From: a candidate division FCPU426 bacterium
Lineage (GTDB): Bacteria > Oederibacteriota > PGYV01 > Palsa-1178
Length of the DNA stretch: 64,000 nucleotides
Assembly (NCBI GenBank): GCA_963840035.1
Contig: CAWIXE010000002.1
Span: forward strand, 224,001 to 288,000
Reading direction: 5' to 3'
Positions 4,981 through 58,408 of the stretch are shown piece by piece (within the stretch, counting starts at the first letter, position 1; the number at the start of each line of letters is the position of its first letter). A model generated the notes under the pieces. The model saw only the letters and a list, made by a program, of their open reading frames with translations. It made no database searches and had not been told where the DNA came from. The position numbers and the translations under genes are program-made.

Positions 4981-5891
4981 TGTCATTGCGAGGAGGCGTT
5001 CTAGACTTATGCCGACGAAGCAATCCCTGTTTTACTGATAAGCCGTAGAATTTGTTAAATGCAGGGTTTAATATTCATTCTTACGGAGGGTAAAAATGAA
5101 TAAACAGTGCTATATTTATATCATGACTTGTAACAGCAATAAGGCTTTATATATAGGGGTTACAAACGACCTTATCAGGCGTGTCCGGGAGCATAAAAAT
5201 AAAGTGGTAAAAGGTTTTACCAGCAGGTATAATGTTGACCGCCTAGTTTATTATGAGGTGTTTGAGGATATAGAAAACGCTATTATAAGGGAAAAGCAGC
5301 TTAAGGGCGGGAACCGCAGGAAAAAGGAAGCGCTGATTAACGGTTTTAACCCGCAATGGAAAGATTTATATGATAGTGTCATTATTTGAGATTGTCATTG
5401 CGAGGAGCCGTTTTAGCCTTGTGGTGACGAAGCAATCTCGGTTTCATCGATAAGACTTAAGCATAGTCCTGCATAAGAACAGAGATTGCTTCGTCGCTGA
5501 GGGGATTGCTCCTCGCAATGACAGGCAAACAAAGATAAGCTTCAAACTGTTTAAGATTGTCATTGATGGCTGATTCTGTCATTGCGAGGAGGCGTTCTTG
5601 ATTTATGCCGACGAAGCAATCCCAGTTCCACCGATAAGCCTTACAACAAAGTACCTGCATAAGAACAGAGATTGCTTCGTCGCTGAGGGGCGCGCTCCTC
5701 GCAATGACAGGCAAACAAAGATAAGCCTTACAACAAAGTGCCTGCATAAGAACAGAGATTGCTTCGTCGCTGAGGAGCTCGCTCCTCGCAATGACAGGCA
5801 AACAAAGATAAGCCTTACAACAAAGTGCCTGCATAAGAACAGAGATTGCTTCGTCGCTGAGGAGCTCGCTCCTCGCAATGACAGGCAAACA
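4981..5891. repeat. Cluster of 7 REP-like palindromes TGTCATTGCGAGG...CGACGAAGCAATC around the GIY-YIG gene, including a 3 x 87 bp tandem
   Basis: Forward copies at 4981, 5393, 5577; reverse copies at 5482, 5668, 5755, 5842; 87-bp units start at 5633, 5720, 5807. Confidence 0.9.
5096..5389 (+). CDS. Stand-alone GIY-YIG nuclease family protein (97 aa)
   Basis: YIYIM...LYIGVTNDLIRRVREH...FTSRY..LVYYE...AIIREKQLK...NPQW; GGAGG RBS upstream. Confidence 0.92.
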   Translation: MNKQCYIYIMTCNSNKALYIGVTNDLIRRVREHKNKVVKGFTSRYNVDRLVYYEVFEDIENAIIREKQLKGGNRRKKEALINGFNPQWKDLYDSVII

Positions 5892-22309: not shown

Positions 22310-22489
22310 CCCTCTCCCCCCGGGAGAGGGTAGGGTGAGGGGGCGTAAGAACAAAATTCACCTCACCCCAGCCCCTCTCTCCCCCGCAAGGGGGGACTAT
22401 AAATAGCTAAGAGGAGAGGGGCGTAATGTAACAAACATAAAGTTTTGTCCTTTTATCCCTCTCCCTCCGGGAGAGGGTAGGGTGAGGGG
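22310..22489. repeat. CCCTCTCC...GGAGAGGGTAGGGTGAGGG palindromic repeat cluster (3 copies)
   Basis: Forward at 22310 and 22457, reverse at 22359 (with a 27-bp loop insert); same family at 46479..46565. Confidence 0.85.
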
Positions 22490-22588
22490 ACGGCAGGGGA
22501 ATATTGCTTGCGGATGTTTAAAAATCAAAGTAAAATACTCCAATAGAGCTACGCAATCAGTCAATATCACATTTGTCTGCGGGGGAGT

Positions 22589-23338
22589 ATGAAAAAAATT
22601 ATATTTACGGCTCTGGCGCTTGCCTTATCCGTGAACATCACGGCCGGAGCGCTTTCCGAACCGAAATGGGAAAAAGTCAGCCTTGATAAAGGGCCGGTCA
22701 AAAAGAGCATAGAAAAGAAAATGGGGAAGATCAGAAAAACGGATGAAGTCTACGCCGACCTGACATGCTGCCAGGGCATAAACGCGTACATAGTGGACAG
22801 GCCGGAGAAAAAAAAGATACAACCGGATAAAAGCGAGCCATATTCGAGGATATTCCTCTTTAATAAAAAGAATGAACTGATCGCATGGTTTGAAAACTCA
22901 AGGACGGATACATTTTATACCTTCACGGTTGACAATAAGCAGCTTTACCTCTTCTCCCTCAGCGAAAACCCGTATGAGGCATTTTCTGAAGCCTACTATG
23001 AAATATTTTTCGTTTCTGATAATAAACTCACAAGCGTGCTAAAAGCCTTCGCGGGAAATTACGCGCTGAATGCCCCGTGCCTTGTAAATCTGGACCTTAA
23101 GAATTACGCCGCGCCCGGCATAGAACTGGCGTTTAAGGATAAAAACAGGGAGATATACTCCAGGATAAGCGTGACTGAAATAGCGGGAAGCAAGAGGACA
23201 AAGGAATTTGCAAAGAAGTATGATAAAAAGAAGGTTGTTTTCAGGTGGGACGGCAGTAAGTACGCAGCAAAATTGAAAGGTTTTGACGGTATAAGCGGGG
23301 AATTAAAGGAACTGGAAAAAACAGAACCGCTGCACTGA
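22589..23338 (+). CDS. Secreted hypothetical protein
   Basis: Signal peptide MKKIIFTALALALSVNITAGA; GGGGAG RBS. Confidence 0.65.
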   Translation: MKKIIFTALALALSVNITAGALSEPKWEKVSLDKGPVKKSIEKKMGKIRKTDEVYADLTCCQGINAYIVDRPEKKKIQPDKSEPYSRIFLFNKKNELIAWFENSRTDTFYTFTVDNKQLYLFSLSENPYEAFSEAYYEIFFVSDNKLTSVLKAFAGNYALNAPCLVNLDLKNYAAPGIELAFKDKNREIYSRISVTEIAGSKRTKEFAKKYDKKKVVFRWDGSKYAAKLKGFDGISGELKELEKTEPLH

Positions 23339-23467
23339 GCCGGCGATTTACCGGATTCCGGACGTTTGATCGGCTTCGGCAATCGCGATGTGAGGCCTGG
23401 CGGAAAAACCGCTTGACGATAAATCCGGGATGATATAATATGATCGAAATTTCACGGGGGGTATTAA

Positions 23468-24190
23468 ATGAAAAAAATAACAGTTTTGACGATTGCCGTA
23501 ATAATCGCTGCGGTTTTAATTTCCTGCAGCAAAGATTCTCCGACAGTCGTAAATCCGGTTGCCAACACCTATGTGGCGCAGTTCCAGCAGGGCGTGCTGC
23601 CTTCATCCGCTTATAACGGAATTAATGACACGCACATAACAAACGCGGCAGGGAAGACAGACCACTCATTTGCCACCTGCGATACGATTTCGCTCGGCAG
23701 GCAGACTACAAACGTATACAGGATTGCCATATCGTGCGCCATGAACTCCATACCTTCCTCGGCAAAAGTGACAAAGGCTTTTCTTACGCTCACCGGGCAG
23801 ACCATGGATACTACCGGGCTCACTGCCACGGCATACGCCCAGTCAGATTACTGGTTCCAGGGAAGCAACGGATGCGACATACTTTATACTAATCCGATGG
23901 ATGGCAGGTGGAACGGCCCGTGGACAGCCGGAGGCAGCCTCGTAAATCCGATGAGCAACTCGGCATTTATTTCCTATAACGCGCCCAACAGGCAGCTGAC
24001 ACTGGAACTTGATACAACCACGGTCCAGAACTGGGTCAAGTACGGCGTATCTTCATACCCGGACGCGAATAACGGGCTTGTCATAAAGGCCTCGGATGAA
24101 GTAGCAGGAGGCTATGCGGCGTTTATTTCGAGTGATAACAGCATATACCTGATGTACCGTCCAATATTTACAATATACTACCAGCTTTAA
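23468..24190 (+). CDS. Lipoprotein with a DNRLRE-like domain
   Basis: Lipobox LISC; FQQGVLP..AYNGINDTHI, VQNWV...NNGLVIK...RP pattern. Confidence 0.7.
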   Translation: MKKITVLTIAVIIAAVLISCSKDSPTVVNPVANTYVAQFQQGVLPSSAYNGINDTHITNAAGKTDHSFATCDTISLGRQTTNVYRIAISCAMNSIPSSAKVTKAFLTLTGQTMDTTGLTATAYAQSDYWFQGSNGCDILYTNPMDGRWNGPWTAGGSLVNPMSNSAFISYNAPNRQLTLELDTTTVQNWVKYGVSSYPDANNGLVIKASDEVAGGYAAFISSDNSIYLMYRPIFTIYYQL

Positions 24191-24310
24191 TAGCGGTTTT
24201 GCGGGGCGCGAATTGACAGTTTTATCGCTCGGGATTTGTCCGTTGTTTTTTTTGATTTTTGGCGGTGTTTGTAAATATTAAAATTCCAATAATAATAAGG
24301 GGAGGAATAC

Positions 24311-25006
24311 ATGAAGTCAAAATTTATTGTTTTTATTTCCATCGCTTTACTCTTGTTTTTCGCTTTCAGCTGTAAAAAAACAAACCCGGCAGCCTCAGAT
24401 GACCCGGCTGCCAATACCGCCACTGTGACATGCACAAAAACAACCACCGAGACCGCGACCGCTTCACCGACCGCGACGTCAAGTCCTACAGCGACAGCGA
24501 CCATAAAGATAGTTTTAGACCAGCATTTCGACTCAACCGTGGAAGGCTGGACGCTTGACCCGGCAAAGACAGGCGGCGTTTCCATAGCTTTCCATGACAC
24601 TGACCCGTACGGCGCGCTGGGAACTACGGGCTGCGCAAAGGTAAGCTGTAACTTTACCGGAGCCGGCGGTTATTCCACGGCAGCCTCATCACTGGCTATA
24701 GTTTATGACTTCCCGTCGCCTGTCGACCTGAAAAGGCACAGCGTGAGTTTTAACCTTTATATCCCGTCGAGCCTCTCAGCGCTGTCATACGGCATACAGC
24801 TGGAGTTTTCCACGGTAAATAACTCAACTTATCACGGTGTAGTCAGTTTTGGTCTTACAACGTCAGACTGGAACAGTTTCCAGATAAGTTATAACAGTGC
24901 GCCTTCTGACGCGGACCAGACGAATTCAGTAAGGTTTCTCATATGGATGCCGGCAAGCAGTACGCCATGGGCCGGGGATATTTATCTTGATGAGATATAC
25001 TGGTAA
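24311..25006 (+). CDS. Lipoprotein with a Thr-rich linker and probable beta-sandwich domain
   Basis: Lipobox AFSC; TATASPTATSSPTATAT; ends IYLDEIYW. Confidence 0.7.
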   Translation: MKSKFIVFISIALLLFFAFSCKKTNPAASDDPAANTATVTCTKTTTETATASPTATSSPTATATIKIVLDQHFDSTVEGWTLDPAKTGGVSIAFHDTDPYGALGTTGCAKVSCNFTGAGGYSTAASSLAIVYDFPSPVDLKRHSVSFNLYIPSSLSALSYGIQLEFSTVNNSTYHGVVSFGLTTSDWNSFQISYNSAPSDADQTNSVRFLIWMPASSTPWAGDIYLDEIYW

Positions 25007-25018
25007 AAAAGCATAGAA

Positions 25019-25048
25019 CAAAAGGGCGGGTGAAAACCCGCCCTTTTG
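25019..25048 (+). terminator. Intrinsic terminator
   Basis: CAAAAGGGCGGG-TGAAAA-CCCGCCCTTTTG. Confidence 0.8.
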
Positions 25049-25249
25049 CATTTTAGGCCGGAGTAAAGGGGAGATGGGATTGCTGATTTAGTAAGATAAA
25101 CCATCCCAAAACCAAAGATTTATTGTAATCATTACAGTTTTGTAATGCGGAAACGATTTAAATCTGTCTATGGATTTATTTCCCGCAGAGGTATATAATA
25201 TTTTCACGATACCTAATGGGACATACACAAACGGAAAAATGTTGAAGGC

Positions 25250-25514
25250 GAGACACAGCAAGCTGTGTCTCTACAAAAAACAATTGAGAAACCTCCCTTC
25301 GTAGAGCCGCTGCTTGCTGCGGCTCAGACGTTGAAGGGCGAATGATGTAAGCATTGTGTTCTCGTAGGGGCGATTTCCACGGGACTTCGCACGAATCGCC
25401 CAAACCAAGACAATTATTGATAACCACTGTAGAGACGCAGCTTGCCTGCGTCTCAGACGTTGAAGGGCGAGACACAGCATCCTTCGACATGCTCAGGATT
25501 AGGCTGTGTCTCTA
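25250..25514. repeat. Cluster of five GTAG/CTAC-tagged REP-like hairpins
   Basis: Hairpins at 25250, 25301, 25364, 25429, 25469; linker AGACGTTGAAGGGCGA repeated. Confidence 0.85.
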
Positions 25515-25536
25515 AAAAAAACACCAGGAGCAACCG

Positions 25537-26168
25537 TGACCGCACGCGACGCATCGTTAAAAACCACCCTCATCCTATTTCTGTTTTTATGTTTGTTCTT
25601 GTCCTCATCCTGCACTCATAACAAATCCACCGAAGTGGAAGCCACCTTCGGAAAAGAGGGGAAAATGTCCAAAAAAGTCCTGGTAGCCTACGCATCCTTC
25701 TCAGGCTCTACAGCTGAGACGGCGATGTTTATAGGGAAGAAGTTAGGGGAAAAAGGAATGGCAGTGGATGTAAAGCCGGTTGAAAAGACAAAAAGCGTGG
25801 AAGGCTACGACCGGGTAATAATAGGCTCAGCCGTCATGATGGGCAAGCTAAAGCCATCGGTTGTGGCCTTCACAGAAAAGAACAAAACCGCCTTAAACAA
25901 GGTCCCGGTCTCGCTCTTCATAGTCTGCCTGACCATGGCCAAAGACACGCCAGAGAATAGAAAAACAGCCTCAGGTTACCTGGACCCGTTAAAAGCGCAG
26001 GTTAAGCCGGTAGGTCCTGAAGGGTTATTTCCGGGGAGGGTACGTTTTAAGGATTTGCCATACCCACAGAAGTTTTTGACATGGCTGCCGGCGTTTAAAA
26101 AGGCTGTGCCGGAGATGGATAGTTTGGATTGGGTGGGGGTGGAGAAGTGGGTGGGGGAAGTGAAGTAG
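25537..26168 (+). CDS. Flavodoxin-domain protein (HemG-like); start uncertain (GTG 25537 or ATG 25664)
   Basis: VLVAYASFSGSTAE, YDRVIIGSAV, DW..V..W C-terminus; possible lipobox LSSSC in the longer form. Confidence 0.8.
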
Positions 26169-26199
26169 ATATGAAGTTAAAGAAACAAGTTAAAAAAAC

Positions 26200-27081
26200 A
26201 TGGTGAAGCAAAACGTAAATGAAATTTTAAAAGAGATTTTTAATAAAATTCGACCTCAAATAGATGGAAATAATAGTTTTAAGAGTATCGACCTGAGTGC
26301 GCTTACGGAAAAAGAAAAGAAAATATTTCAACAATATGCTGCGCAAGCAAAAAACACCATAGAACATTCATACCAAGACAGGAAAGGGAAAAAGCATTCA
26401 TTTGAATTTAATGGGCATATTAATTTGTTGTTTTGCCAAATTTTCAATGAAATGTTAATAATTGATTCGTATTTGAATTTTAGTGAAAAATACCATGTTG
26501 AAATATTTAGAAAGTTAGTTCGACAAATCGGAGGACGTAAAAGGAAATACGATTTTTATAATGATTTAGAAAATGATGTTCAACGCGACTCGTATTTCGC
26601 TTTAGGTTTTACATTTCCCGAAAAGTTAAGATATTCAATTTTTGTGTATTTGTGGAGTTTGTTTGAAAATTGGTTGTATAATATTTGTGATTATTTACAA
26701 AAGATGTATTCAAAAAAGACAATTTTTGATGAAATGAAAGGTAGCAAAATTGAAAATGCAAAGAAATACTTTAAGGATGTAATTGGTTTAAGGATTTCGT
26801 TGGATGGGAATTGGAACTTTTTACTCTCGTGTAATAAAATACGGCATGTATTAGTTCACAATAATGGGATAATTAGCGGAACAAAATATGAAAAAGAAAT
26901 TCGAAGATTTGTTGCTGCGAACAAGAAAAATGTTCGAATAACTATAAAATCAAATTGGCACAACGAAAGAAGTGATGCATTAGAGTTGAAGCGAGGTTTT
27001 AGTTTTGAGTGCACAAAGATAATGCGTGTTTTTTTGTACAAAATATACAAAAGTATTGAAAATTATGGAAGTGAAACATAA
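26200..27081 (+). CDS. AT-rich hypothetical protein with a HEPN-like Rx4H motif
   Basis: SIFVYLWSLFENWL and IRHVLVHNNG; visibly AT-rich relative to neighbours. Confidence 0.6.
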   Translation: MVKQNVNEILKEIFNKIRPQIDGNNSFKSIDLSALTEKEKKIFQQYAAQAKNTIEHSYQDRKGKKHSFEFNGHINLLFCQIFNEMLIIDSYLNFSEKYHVEIFRKLVRQIGGRKRKYDFYNDLENDVQRDSYFALGFTFPEKLRYSIFVYLWSLFENWLYNICDYLQKMYSKKTIFDEMKGSKIENAKKYFKDVIGLRISLDGNWNFLLSCNKIRHVLVHNNGIISGTKYEKEIRRFVAANKKNVRITIKSNWHNERSDALELKRGFSFECTKIMRVFLYKIYKSIENYGSET

Positions 27082-27147
27082 AAGTGTTGTTCGTGTTTGA
27101 AAATGCAATTTATTGAAAAGAAAACAAATATGAAGCGCGGAGGCTTT

Positions 27148-28107
27148 ATGCAAAACCGAAAACTCGGCTGGACCGGCCTTAACCTATCCACCATCGGTCT
27201 CGGCACCTGGGCCGCAGGCGGTGGGGATTGGAAGTTTGGGTGGGGGCCGCAGGATGATAATGATACAATCAGGACCATACATGAGGCTTTAGATACCGGA
27301 ATTAACTGGATTGATACCGCCGCTGTGTATGGACTTGGTCATTCTGAAGTTGTGGTGGGGAAGTCGATTAAAGTCATTCGTAATCAAGTCATTATCGCCA
27401 CTAAGTGTGAGCGGCATTGGAAGGCTGATGGGAGTGAGATATTTGGGGTTTTGAAGAAAGCTTCCATTAAAAAAGAATGCGAAGAATCGCTGGCTCGCCT
27501 TGGGACTGACCGGATTGACCTTTATCAGATACACTGGCCTCAGCCGGAAGAAGATATCGTAGAGGGTTGGGAAGCTATACAGGAACTTATAAAAGAGGGG
27601 AAAGTTCGGTTTGGCGGGGTTTCTAACTTTTCTACTTCTCAGATGAAAAACATCTGGCCTTCGGGGAAGATTGCTTCACTTCAGCCTCCTTACAGCATGT
27701 TCAGGCGGGGGGTGGAGGCGGAGCAGATGGGGTATTGTGCCGCTAATAACATCGGGATGATTGTTTATTCTCCTATGGAGAAGGGGCTTTTGACCGGGAA
27801 GGTGACGGCGGAGTGGGTGAAGAACCTGGATGAGAGCGACCACCGGAAGCGGGATGGGAATTTTAATGAACCTTTACTTTCGAAAAACCTGGCTATAATA
27901 GAAAAACTGAAGGCTGTGGCTTTGAAAGTCGGTATAACTTTGAGCCAGTTGGCTTTGGCGTGGGTGTTACGGCGGCCGGAAGTGACGGCGGCTATTGTGG
28001 GGGCGAGGAAACCAGGGCAGATAACGGAGACTGCGAAGGCGGGGGATTTGGTTTTGACGGGGGATGTGATTGCGGAGGTTGAGGGGATATTAAAAGAACG
28101 GGTATAA
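27148..28107 (+). CDS. Aldo/keto reductase
   Basis: IGLGTW, WIDTAAVYGLGHSE, IATK, IDLYQIHWP, GVSNF, LQPPYSM. Confidence 0.95.
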   Translation: MQNRKLGWTGLNLSTIGLGTWAAGGGDWKFGWGPQDDNDTIRTIHEALDTGINWIDTAAVYGLGHSEVVVGKSIKVIRNQVIIATKCERHWKADGSEIFGVLKKASIKKECEESLARLGTDRIDLYQIHWPQPEEDIVEGWEAIQELIKEGKVRFGGVSNFSTSQMKNIWPSGKIASLQPPYSMFRRGVEAEQMGYCAANNIGMIVYSPMEKGLLTGKVTAEWVKNLDESDHRKRDGNFNEPLLSKNLAIIEKLKAVALKVGITLSQLALAWVLRRPEVTAAIVGARKPGQITETAKAGDLVLTGDVIAEVEGILKERV

Positions 28108-28131
28108 TTGGCGATTATAAAGCCAGCGTCT

Positions 28132-28232
28132 GAGCCGCAGCATCCTTCGACAAGCTCAGGATTAGGCAGCGGCTCTACGAAGGCTAAATACAAAAGCCTG
28201 CGTTGCGGGCGGCCACATGGGGCCGCCCCTAC
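28132..28232. repeat. Two CTAC-ended REP-like hairpins, the first with a loop insert
   Basis: GAGCCGCAGC[ATCCTTCGACAAGCTCAGGATT]AGGCAGCGGCTCTAC and GGGCGGCCACATGGGGCCGCCCCTAC. Confidence 0.8.
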
Positions 28233-28252
28233 GGGGAGATATTGGTGGTTAA

Positions 28253-28585
28253 ATGAAAAAAATGATTTCAATATTATTGACTGCGGCGGTTTTGTTTAAT
28301 GTCTTTTCTGGATGCGCTACGGTCAGCCAGAGGACTGATACGGAACCTGTACAGCAGGATAAACCCGGTATTTTCGGAAAGAATACCTTGGGTAAATTTC
28401 TTGGCGGGCTTGCCGGGGGAGGGTTGGGGTTTTTGATTTCTTTACCTGTCTATGCCGCTCTGTCTAAAAACCAAGATTCATATGTGCAGGTAATGTTCAT
28501 TTTTTTAATACCGCTTATAACTGTGGTAGGTGCCGGAACAGGTGCCATTGCAGGGGATGTGGTTGAGGAAACCATTAAAAAATAA
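28253..28585 (+). CDS. Small lipoprotein with Gly-zipper-like hydrophobic helices
   Basis: Lipobox FSGC; GGLAGGGLG and GAGTGAIAG. Confidence 0.65.
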   Translation: MKKMISILLTAAVLFNVFSGCATVSQRTDTEPVQQDKPGIFGKNTLGKFLGGLAGGGLGFLISLPVYAALSKNQDSYVQVMFIFLIPLITVVGAGTGAIAGDVVEETIKK

Positions 28586-28672
28586 TACCTGCATACGCAC
28601 CCCGGTGGGGCGTAGATCCGTCTCCGCTAAAGCTTCGACGGACATGGGGGTGCGATTATTAAGGAGGAATAC

Positions 28673-29197
28673 ATGAAAAACATATTTCAGGCTTTGGCAA
28701 AGTACAACAGCAATGTTAACATGGAGATTGCGGGGATTTTGGAAGGCATGACGGCAGAGAAGCTGGAGGAAAAGACAAAAGCTTTTTATCCCACTGTTAA
28801 GGATTGTCTTTTCCATGTGTTTGCCAGCGATTTTGCCATGTGCAGGCGGTATAAGCTGGCTTTGCCCGGGAGCGGGGTGCTTTCATCCGCACTTCTTTTG
28901 GACGCGGATATTGAGAAGATAAAAAGCGAATCTTCGGCAGACATAAAGGCTTTCTTTAAGTACCGCAGGGAGCTCGACGGGCTTTTGGCTGGGTTTGTGG
29001 GGGAACTGACGGATGAACAGCTGATGATGCCTTTCCACTACACCAATTACAAAAAGGAAAAGGTCGAGACTGTAATGTGGAAAATGCTGCTGCATAATTT
29101 CAACCACCAGACCCATCATAGAGGCGGGCTTGCGGCCATGCTGGATATACTGGGGGTAAAGAATGATTTTTCGGGGACACTGAATAAGATAAATTGA
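28673..29197 (+). CDS. DinB family protein
   Basis: AKYN..N, LFHVF..D, HNFNHQTHHRG; AAGGAGG RBS. Confidence 0.9.
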   Translation: MKNIFQALAKYNSNVNMEIAGILEGMTAEKLEEKTKAFYPTVKDCLFHVFASDFAMCRRYKLALPGSGVLSSALLLDADIEKIKSESSADIKAFFKYRRELDGLLAGFVGELTDEQLMMPFHYTNYKKEKVETVMWKMLLHNFNHQTHHRGGLAAMLDILGVKNDFSGTLNKIN

Positions 29198-29229
29198 TAA
29201 TTGCCGATTAGAGGCAAAATCCGGCGTTT

Positions 29230-29515
29230 GAGCCGCAGCAAGCGGCGGCTCTACGGGGTTGTAAGGATTGTAAATTTTTGATTTTGTAGAGCCACCGCTT
29301 GCATATGTCATGAGCTCAATAATATACTCATGCCATATACATATCGAATGGCTGCGGCTCAGGGCAGGAATTCGTAGTCGCAGGCCTTCCGCCTTCGCTG
29401 AAGCTTCGGCGGACGAGTATCGGCCTGCGCCTACATACGGCATTGACGGACGCGAACGGACGACGGACCAAAGGCCCGCGTGCGCACCCCGGTGGGGCGT
29501 AGAGGGTGCGACTAC
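29230..29515. repeat. Cluster of REP-like hairpins
   Basis: 29230 GAGCCGCAGCAAGCGGCGGCTCTAC; 29374 GTAGTCGCAGGC..GCCTGCG with insert; 29483 CGCACCCCGGTGGGGCGTAGAGGGTGCGACTAC. Confidence 0.75.
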
Positions 29516-29525
29516 GAATACTTAG

Positions 29526-29600
29526 GGCTTTTATCCTTCTTATAGCGTTCGAGAATCGAGAATTGAAAATTGATCAGCAAGCTGGGAAGGGTATTATAAT
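29526..29600 (+). promoter_or_regulatory. Shared 75-bp upstream element, copy 1
   Basis: GCTTTTATCC...GCGTTCGAGAATCGAGAATTGAAAATTGATCAGCAAGCTGGGAAGG.TATTATAAT; homologous to copies at 32032 and 37345. Confidence 0.65.
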
Positions 29601-29621
29601 AAAACCTGCTTAGGAGAACAT

Positions 29622-30446
29622 ATGAAAAAATTTCTTGTAATCATCACTACCTTGATCCTGGTTCTTGTCGCCGGGATATTTGTTTTGTTGGCTCCTGCTA
29701 TTGGCAACTTGTCTAAGGCGGGGGTTGTGGATGTTAATGATAACCTTAAGGTCTTTACCGGCGGGGGGAATTCGGCGGTTTATGTTACTCCTTTTAAGTC
29801 AGCTATAATCATTGTTGATACTAAGTTCGGGGGGGCTTCAAAAACTCTTAAGCAATATACTGACAGTGTGAATCCTAAGGCTAAGGTTACCATTATAAAT
29901 ACACATTTGCACGCTGACCATGTGGGCGGGGATTCTCTTTATCCGGGGGCTGAAGTTATAATGGGCGGGGGGGATGGGGTAAAGACCGGGAATCTCGCGG
30001 ACAGGGTTATAAAACCCGGGGAATCTTATGTTATCAAAATTGACGGGGATGAAATAATAGTGCGCAATATGGGGGTCGGGCATTCTTTTGCCGATATGGT
30101 TGTTTATTTTAAAAATGAAAAACTTCTTATGACCGGGGACCTTGTCTTTAATGGGTGGCATCCTGTGCTGATAAAACAGGGTGGGGCTGATATTGGAAAA
30201 TGGGTGAAGGACCTGGAGTTTTTGCAGGCGAATTATGACGCGAAGACCGTGGTGCCGGGGCATGGGGAGGTTTCAGGGGGGAATATTTTACAGGAACAGA
30301 AGGAGTATTTTGAGGGCATAAAGGCGGCTTTGACGGATCCTGAAAAAATGAAGGCTTTGAAAGAGAAGTATAAGGGATATAACCAGATGCCGTTTTTCAC
30401 GGGAGTTGACAGGACGGCGGAGTTTATGAAAAGCACTGGCTATTGA
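29622..30446 (+). CDS. MBL-fold metallo-hydrolase (cyclase-like), N-terminally anchored or exported
   Basis: NTHLHADHVGG, GHS, TGDL, VPGHG. Confidence 0.92.
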   Translation: MKKFLVIITTLILVLVAGIFVLLAPAIGNLSKAGVVDVNDNLKVFTGGGNSAVYVTPFKSAIIIVDTKFGGASKTLKQYTDSVNPKAKVTIINTHLHADHVGGDSLYPGAEVIMGGGDGVKTGNLADRVIKPGESYVIKIDGDEIIVRNMGVGHSFADMVVYFKNEKLLMTGDLVFNGWHPVLIKQGGADIGKWVKDLEFLQANYDAKTVVPGHGEVSGGNILQEQKEYFEGIKAALTDPEKMKALKEKYKGYNQMPFFTGVDRTAEFMKSTGY

Positions 30447-30465
30447 GCCATAGTAATATGTAGTT

Positions 30466-30646
30466 GTAGAGAGGGGGCTTGCCCCCTCTCAAACCAGGTA
30501 TTAAAACCCAGTGTCTGAGCCGCAGCATCCTTCGACAAGCTCAGGATTAGGCAGCGGCTCTACGAAGAGCAATACAAGAACAAGGCGGTTTGTCTTCGTA
30601 GGGGCGAGCCGGTGGCTCGCCCGGGTTTAGATTTAAGAACGCAAAC
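30466..30646. repeat. Cluster of three REP-like hairpins
   Basis: At 30466, 30517 (with insert) and 30598. Confidence 0.8.
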
Positions 30647-46478: not shown

Positions 46479-46565
46479 CCCTCTCCCATTTGGGAGAGGG
46501 TAGGGTGAGGGGAATAAGACAATTGGTTTCACCTCACCCCAGCCCCTCTCCTAAGAGGAGAGGGG
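46479..46565. repeat. CCCTCTCC...GGAGAGGG palindromic repeat pair
   Basis: Forward 46479..46512, reverse 46530..46565. Confidence 0.85.
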
Positions 46566-58384: not shown

Positions 58385-58408
58385 GTAGGGGCGATTCATG
58401 AATCGCCC
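58385..58408 (+). repeat. GTAG-type REP-like hairpin
   Basis: GTAGGGGCGATTCATGAATCGCCC. Confidence 0.75.

Follow-up and report, generated by a model that had tools for sequence, protein, structure and literature searches.

A stretch of 64,000 nucleotides from the genome of a candidate division FCPU426 bacterium (assembly GCA_963840035.1, contig CAWIXE010000002.1, positions 224,001 to 288,000; hereafter the window) contains palindromic repeats that occur both empty and filled by much shorter hairpins. A sequence-only reading had proposed that these are ultra-short mobile hairpins directed to the loops of other hairpins. The feature is real: the inserts have sharp edges, three of them (named I1, I2 and I4 below) occupy several unrelated hosts and, in other genomes, I1 and I2 each flank their own subfamily of GIY-YIG genes of about 85 amino acids (aa), both distinct from the Ssn-like type. 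They are micro-elements resembling the SDR repeats of Nostocaceae, nested in repetitive extragenic palindromic (REP) sequences, and two of them have a specific and testable nuclease partner. The inserts are likely non-autonomous elements of 14-50 bases of single-stranded DNA (ssDNA), inserted without target duplication in other repeats. Their ends are probably set by small GIY-YIG nucleases, each specific for one hairpin type, and the small nucleases flanked by I1 and I2 likely help to move these hairpins.

The source genome, G000, amounts to 3.46 Mb in three contigs (C1-C3) and is 98% complete, the window corresponding to G000:C2:224001-288000. The inserts first listed as items 1, 2, 3 and 4 are referred to as I1, I2, I3 and I6, and I4 is an additional insert of 50 nt that the earlier list lacked. 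The filled and empty sites of the window, with REP families designated by H numbers, are as follows.

22360-22421, no strand assigned: filled DUF559-associated repeat, host of I3
22380-22406, minus strand: I3, 27-nt insert with a 10-nt leader and a 6-bp hairpin in the minus-strand reading, compared exactly with the empty 46531-46565
46531-46565, no strand assigned: empty DUF559-associated repeat, the counterpart in that comparison
25250-25274, minus strand: empty GTAG-type REP of family H1, empty twin for I1 at 25480-25502
25301-25325, plus strand: empty GTAG-type REP of family H3, empty twin for I1 at 28143 and 30528
29230-29254, minus strand: empty H3 REP, a second empty twin for I1 at 28143 and 30528
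25376-25389, minus strand: I6, 14-nt insert in a REP of family H7 (host 25364-25401), compared with the empty 58385
58385-58408, plus strand: empty H7 REP, twin of the filled 25364-25401
25480-25502, minus strand: I1, 23 nt, with a 4-nt leader and a 19-nt hairpin with a purine-rich internal loop, in an H1 host (25469-25515), by exact comparison
28143-28165, minus strand: I1 in the loop of an H3 REP (host 28132-28178), by comparison with the empty REPs at 25301 and 29230
30528-30550, minus strand: I1 in the loop of an H3 REP (host 30517-30563), by the same comparison
28617-28647, minus strand: I2, 31 nt, made up of a 5-nt leader and a hairpin of 26 nt (3x3 internal loop), placed where the loop of an H9 REP begins or ends (host from 28596), compared exactly with the empty 29483
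29483-29515, minus strand: empty H9 REP, twin of the filled 28596 copy by exact comparison
29388-29417, minus strand: I2 hairpin (29388-29413) with 4 further nt, in the loop of a REP of family H10 (host 29374-29434) that lacks an exact empty twin
about 29302-29351, no strand assigned: I4, an insert of 50 nt with a 1-2 nt ambiguity at its edges, hosted by a REP of family H3 (29286-29360), 20 copies genome-wide

Comparison of these sites bore out the nesting first described, in all four items. The 23 nt at 25480-25502 stand in place of one A of the empty loop at 25250, a net gain of 22 nt, and the inserts in the two filled H3 loops share this junction; the two stems concerned are not independent evidence, because they are related REPs with equal loop-side bases and an equal loss of 1 nt. 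The I2 copy at 28617-28647 is an exact insert, with neither duplication nor overlap. The copy in the 29374 repeat, assigned to the same insert, does carry the same 26-nt hairpin as the 28617 copy but lacks an exact empty twin, and some of its loop bases were lost, since the loop is 11 nt long in the 41 other matches of H10. The 27 nt of I3 and the 14 nt of I6 were likewise recovered as inserts, the host loop of I6 also differing by one base from its empty twin. These hairpins are beyond chance expectation: a structure-based scan found 35 I2-type and 41 I1-type hairpins in G000 against 2 and 1, respectively, in the reversed genome. A de novo scan for empty and filled pairs, noisy and reduced from 821 candidates to 153 by filters, served only as a list of leads.

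I1, I2 and I3 had been described as hairpins themselves, and all three consist of a leader followed by a hairpin when read on one strand, a plan shared by I6 and several inserts of 20-23 nt. The leader measures 4-5 nt (10 in I3), usually starts with C and ends with a purine, and the last base of the hairpin is the 3' junction. Among 28 distinct 26-mers of I2, the outer stem covaries at several pairs, a pairing partly built in since the scan demanded a stem, and is separated by a 3x3 purine-rich internal loop from two invariant inner pairs. A purine immediately precedes the I2 stem on its 5' side in 114 of 117 copies from other genomes.

I2 provides the most extensive evidence for repeated insertion. 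Its pattern gave 36 matches in G000, of which C1:907419 and C2:1055434 were dropped as probable chance matches, leaving 34 copies distributed over 11 host-site classes. At least three empty twins were available for 27 of them, revealing lengths of 31 nt (21 copies), 30 nt (3) and 32 nt (3), and a junction microhomology of 0 in 20 copies and of 1 nt in 7, without target duplication. An identical 31-mer is found at C2:571969 and C2:1581303 in different REP families, with 11 of 18 flanking bases unlike, and the 28617 hairpin is identical to one in a third REP family, so that a single inherited long allele is ruled out for I2 and the claim of independent insertion in many hosts stands. Its core is retrieved in about 980 stored GTDB stretches, from Proteobacteria, Bacteroidota, Acidobacteriota, Patescibacteria, Planctomycetota and others; BLAST against plasmids gave weak partial matches only. 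In individual records, I2 was seen within TGTC-tagged repeats of Bradyrhizobium, and in L016 it sits in what appears to be an RNase P RNA gene.

Independent insertion in several hosts also holds for I1 and I4. In G000, monomers of I1 (22-24 nt) occupy REPs of three families and 7-nt tandem arrays, and others lie beside repeats resembling transposon ends or at unassigned sites. The TGTC-tagged repeat takes up I1 double hairpins of 38-39 nt at one position of its stem, with 14 true filled sites for 96 empty ones; a fifteenth apparently filled site of this Ssn-type repeat, C2:956596, was a false match. In other genomes, I1 matches were found in 71 plasmid records, mostly proteobacterial. All 20 copies of I4 in G000 lie within REPs of several families, including, within H3, two sites in opposite orientations. 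Two I1 look-alikes lying in frame within genes, presumably carbohydrate-binding-module genes, were rejected as chance matches that align gap-free to paralogs, and a third lies in a Thr-rich region. Two I1 copies (C2:940232 and C2:947121) adjoin copies of an end of a Y1 transposase gene of about 330 aa bounded by terminal inverted repeats. In another genome, G025, a different insert occupies the stem site taken in G000 by the I1 double hairpins, and REP family H11 of G000 carries a further insert, of 28 nt.

The mobile nature claimed for I3 and I6 did not hold up in the same way, both being confined to one host lineage. I3 is restricted to the DUF559-type family, in G000 and one relative (G002), and the seven copies of I6 all lie at one H7 site; of 99 genomes searched in the phylum, one contained its exact 14-mer. 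For each of the two, a single old insertion that was then multiplied with its host suffices, and both may be inherited long alleles. That every filled site is the inherited long allele of one ancestral repeat, empty sites being deletions or sister alleles, is plausible for these two and for the three I1 copies of the window, which share one junction within 5 kb. As a general explanation we consider it very improbable, since it is refuted for I2 by the identical 31-mer in unlike hosts, I4 fills two sites of H3 in two orientations, and filled copies are a minority in each family.

The preference for loops, another part of the original claim, is clear for I2 in G000. Under a lenient rule for junction placement, 27 of its 34 junctions fall within loops, compared with 19.4% of intergenic positions chosen at random, the count being 27 of 36 with fixed edges and no match dropped, and 10 of 11 by host-site class (p 7e-7). 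It is weaker for I1, with 10 of 18 monomers outside long open reading frames (ORFs) in loops, double hairpins in a stem and other copies in 7-nt tandem repeats, and in other genomes an outer stem of at least 6 bp surrounds only 15 of 117 I2 copies (control 4.7%). More aptly, the target is DNA that is single-stranded or prone to folding, loops being preferred where REPs are abundant. The dedicated insertion activity is a putative one. At positions -3/+1 of 113 loci, no signal of guide-like pairing between leader and target flank was detected; 70 tests yielded a few low p values, which do not hold for so large a number of tests.

This variety of fold-prone targets would also be expected if no dedicated enzyme were involved and template switching or break repair at stalled hairpins copied a short hairpin into a loop, a possibility to which the loss of at least 1 nt at some junctions and the failure to find cognate nuclease genes in G000 (see below) also lend weight. 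We nevertheless regard it as unlikely, given that microhomology is lacking (0-1 nt), that the ends are fixed across 11 different contexts, and that the same core is kept across phyla, each hairpin type with one nuclease subfamily.

A slightly better candidate, though still an unlikely one, is that the inserts are cargo of the REP-associated tyrosine transposases (RAYT, or TnpA-REP, of the HUH/Y1 type) of G000, moved by single-strand cleavage and strand transfer at REPs. Profile searches of G000 gave 8 matches to Y1 transposases, 3 to GIY-YIG proteins (two short genes and a long one) and 3 to DUF559. Most hosts are GTAG-type REPs, and such families flank five of the eight Y1 genes, H1, with 32 short copies in G000, flanking the RAYT gene at C3:356779. 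HUH strand transfer would proceed without target duplication and supply the joining step, and by inspection I2 lies nearly always on the GTAG strand of its host. Against this, PMC8266576 places TnpA-REP cleavage between C and T (also at CA for one enzyme) outside the hairpin, while I2 junctions do not combine two such C-T sites on either strand; hosts foreign to RAYT are also filled (the Ssn-type repeat, the DUF559 repeat and heptamer arrays), and the leader shows no pairing with target flanks.

The partnership with small GIY-YIG genes emerged from one of 118 I2 loci (L086), where a tRNA-Ser gene and I2 are followed by a GIY-YIG gene of 83 aa and then by an I2-type hairpin in inverted orientation. 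Among 80 metagenome relatives of this gene, a tRNA gene is present in 68 loci and an I2-type hairpin in 32, reversed controls giving 0, and the I2-linked genes mostly adjoin tRNA genes. One scanner was then applied within 350 nt of three gene sets. It found I2 at 30 of 80 and I1 at 1 of 80 genes of the L086 type; I1 at 8 of 23 and I2 at 2 of 23 genes of the L356 type, a sample centred on a Bacteroidales genome; and CGTC-class repeats at 26 of 30, I1 at 1 of 30 and I2 at 0 of 30 Ssn-like genes. In the reversed controls neither I1 nor I2 turned up, and the CGTC motif did so 0-3 times. Fisher tests of the pairing of I1 and I2 with their genes gave p values of 3e-6 and 9e-6 for sets of genes whose relatives are not independent. 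In the phylum of G000, I2 flanks six of the eight closest L086-type genes and occurs in all eight genomes carrying them against 12 of 23 others of that family (p 0.028), a partly circular comparison since a gene-flanking I2 can itself count. A genome of the same family as G000 displays the order tRNA-Gln, I1, I1, GIY-YIG gene (L326); among 31 relatives of that protein I1 lies nearby in only three (control 1), which have a C-terminal Trp motif in common. In an alignment (A1) of the small GIY-YIG proteins, from which L239 was excluded for its stop codons, the Tyr/Gly of the GIY-YIG motif and the Arg, His and Glu are invariant. The partner proteins are distant from the Ssn-like gene at 5096 of the window, Ssn nucleases being assigned to cd10448, and the nearest solved structures to them are UPF0213 proteins (E 3e-4).

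At L086, L164-L225 and L326, the I2 or I1 hairpin overlaps the final bases of the tRNA-Ser or tRNA-Gln gene. The 3' end of tRNA-Ser is identical to the commonest I2 arm and may be its origin. A further small GIY-YIG subfamily (L290, L292 and L293) is preceded by hairpins with a stem resembling the 28-nt H11 insert, and other small GIY-YIG genes (L282, L284 and L299) adjoin copies of tRNA genes in which short GC-rich hairpins break up the anticodon loop or the T loop. Downstream of 21 of the 45 tRNA genes of G000, at a distance of 50 nt at most, the 3' end of the gene recurs in inverted form with a few additional bases, giving a fold-back that includes CCA, an observation made with no control. 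Second copies of tRNA-Thr and tRNA-Arg genes (C2:1422150-1422440 and C3:180560-180830) share a related D-loop insert of about 80-90 nt with small hairpins.

A mechanism for such movement can be proposed by analogy with SsnA, a single-domain GIY-YIG protein that recognises its hairpin solely in single-stranded form and in one polarity, and that cleaves ssDNA upstream of the hairpin at a distance of a few nucleotides, an offset differing between homologs (PMC11893778). The nuclease would bind the folded hairpin in ssDNA and cut 4-5 nt on its 5' side, and on the 3' side cutting or trimming would remove everything up to the stem base; as an SsnA-like nuclease would leave exactly a short 5' leader on the hairpin, the release of an oligonucleotide made of leader and hairpin can be postulated. 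This stable oligonucleotide would be joined into a break at another single-stranded site, mostly a hairpin loop and also a repeat stem, tandem heptamers or tRNA ends, by a putative joining activity, and the filled REP would then be copied along with its host family. The inserts of G000 could have been left behind by a cognate gene that was later lost, or could come from a cross-reacting gene. This capture of nuclease-released hairpins at single-stranded breaks is the best model we can offer, and we give it about an even chance. The broader proposition that several non-Ssn subfamilies of about 85 aa, located at tRNA 3' ends, each release their own ssDNA hairpin of 20-50 nt and drive its insertion into hairpins is advanced more tentatively, as a possibility on which we would lean to the negative side.

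Several observations weigh against a nuclease-driven origin. Neither cognate subfamily was found in G000 despite its 98% completeness, the searches giving only two other small GIY-YIG genes, at 34-44% identity, and to our knowledge joining of DNA by GIY-YIG nucleases has not been reported. Such a gene lies within 700 nt at only 1 of the 118 I2 loci, and conversely the scanner found no such hairpin at 50 of 80 L086-type and 15 of 23 L356-type genes. Co-occurrence at the genome level is modest: across the phylum, as tallied by hand, I2 is present in 17 of the 29 genomes that have an A1 match and in 25 of the 70 that have none (p 0.045), and three of eight genomes with at least ten I2 copies have no A1 match. 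The evidence for a nuclease partner covers I1 and I2, and the folding strand is poorly marked in G000, with G-T against A-C pairs in a ratio of 4:5 and mixed orientation and GC skew.

Movement through an RNA copy and a reverse transcriptase, a route reportedly proposed for the cyanobacterial SDRs, would fit the flush 3' and slightly variable 5' junctions, as expected of primed copying, and the presence of a tRNA gene within 700 nt at 18 of 118 I2 loci. We judge it improbable: no match to the reverse transcriptase profile PF00078 was found in G000, I2 shows no clear bias for the transcript strand (15 copies sense and 7 antisense to genes, with mixed GC skew), and G-T and A-C pairs are not asymmetric (4 vs 5).

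If the broader proposition on several non-Ssn subfamilies holds, the inserts would be a class of mobile DNA that needs no transposase, would rank with the smallest known and would parasitise REPs, Ssn repeats and tRNA genes across phyla. If hairpin release and capture by small nucleases is correct, the partners of the inserts would be new sequence-specific ssDNA nucleases beyond Ssn, which would explain the gain of structure in REP loops and tRNA neighbourhoods. The dozens of exact junctions and several insert families of G000 bear on how repeats shorter than 50 bases spread, and the matching of each hairpin type to one nuclease subfamily makes the question directly assayable, with a predicted cut site.

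The window itself carries one small GIY-YIG gene, of another subfamily than those pairing with I1 or I2.

5096-5389, plus strand: GIY-YIG gene of the Ssn-like type, 97 aa (PF01541, E 4e-18), with TGTC-tagged repeats on its flanks

This gene sits within an array of TGTC-tagged repeats, and its relatives in the phylum have such repeats at 27 of 30 loci; elsewhere in G000 the same repeat family hosts the I1 double hairpins. The host repeat families as a whole (REPs, TGTC-tagged and DUF559-associated) have 23-214 matches each in G000, and one DUF559 gene is flanked by the repeat family present at 22360. Three Y1 genes of about 330 aa (C3:278123, C3:318423 and C2:583921) have terminal inverted repeats, not REPs, at their boundaries. 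Among the repeated 16-mers of G000, 7-nt tandem repeats of ten or more families, present at many intergenic sites, and long Thr-rich 12-nt coding repeats predominate. At 26200-27081, between flavodoxin and aldo-keto reductase genes, a 293-aa ORF in visibly AT-rich DNA has no Pfam match. The window has no Rfam match and no tRNA gene.

Comparison with known systems places the inserts closest to the cyanobacterial SDRs, the other near systems being Ssn/SRM, REPs with RAYT, and insertion sequences that target REPs. A literature search covering few subscription papers, and PMC11893778 without its supplements, found no link of these hairpins to non-Ssn GIY-YIG genes and no such nesting described outside SDRs. 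In the Ssn/NTS-SRM system (Chenal et al. 2025, PMC11893778), a single-domain GIY-YIG gene of about 90 aa has short directional hairpins on its flanks, others being dispersed over genomes; likewise I2 and I1 flank genes of about 85 aa in other genomes (30/80 and 8/23), although not in G000, and the cut a few nucleotides 5' of the hairpin is consistent with the 4-5-nt leader of the inserts. The differences are that the search sequence of the SRM, with its CGTC-type tag, is not matched by I1 or I2 and that none of its 16 matches in G000 is an insert, that the partner genes of I1 and I2 are only 34-44% identical to the Ssn-like gene of the window, and that the sections of that paper considered here cover cleavage and the effect on transformation, and neither insertion nor nesting. 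The long TGTC-tagged repeats of G000 also miss the published SRM pattern.

The hosts belong to the known GTAG-type REPs, REPINs and BIMEs with their RAYT and to CGTC-type REPs (PMC3733652, PMC3116915, PMC8266576), and REPs inside other palindromes and REPINs in or adjoining REPINs have already been noted there. Unlike their hosts, the inserts have no GTAG tag, consist of single hairpins of 14-50 nt and do not follow the C-T cleavage rule. Nor do they resemble miniature inverted-repeat transposable elements, defined by terminal inverted repeats and target-site duplication, their ends being asymmetric with a junction overlap of 0-1 nt. Insertion sequences targeting REPs, such as IS1397 and those of Tobes and Pareja 2006, are reportedly full transposase-coding elements; insertion into palindromic units is common to both, whereas the inserts here are non-coding.

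The likeness to the SDRs is judged by description; in one Nostoc punctiforme plasmid no I1-type match was found and I2-type matches showed no excess over the control. SDR1-8 of Nostocaceae, described by Elhai et al. (2008, Genome Res 18:1484), are said to include SDR4-6 of 21-27 nt, nested and in heptamer arrays. I1 (22-24 nt) and I3 (27 nt) fit this size, I2 (30-32 nt) being slightly longer, and the inserts share with SDRs the character of very small mobile repeats precisely inserted into other repeated motifs. According to PMC4390886 and PMC5861425, SDR5 inserts into HIP1 between the third and fourth base of that motif, and SDRs are limited to Nostocaceae. By contrast, I2 extends over many phyla and I1 over mostly proteobacterial plasmids, the targets here are REP loops in place of HIP1, and a nuclease partner is proposed.

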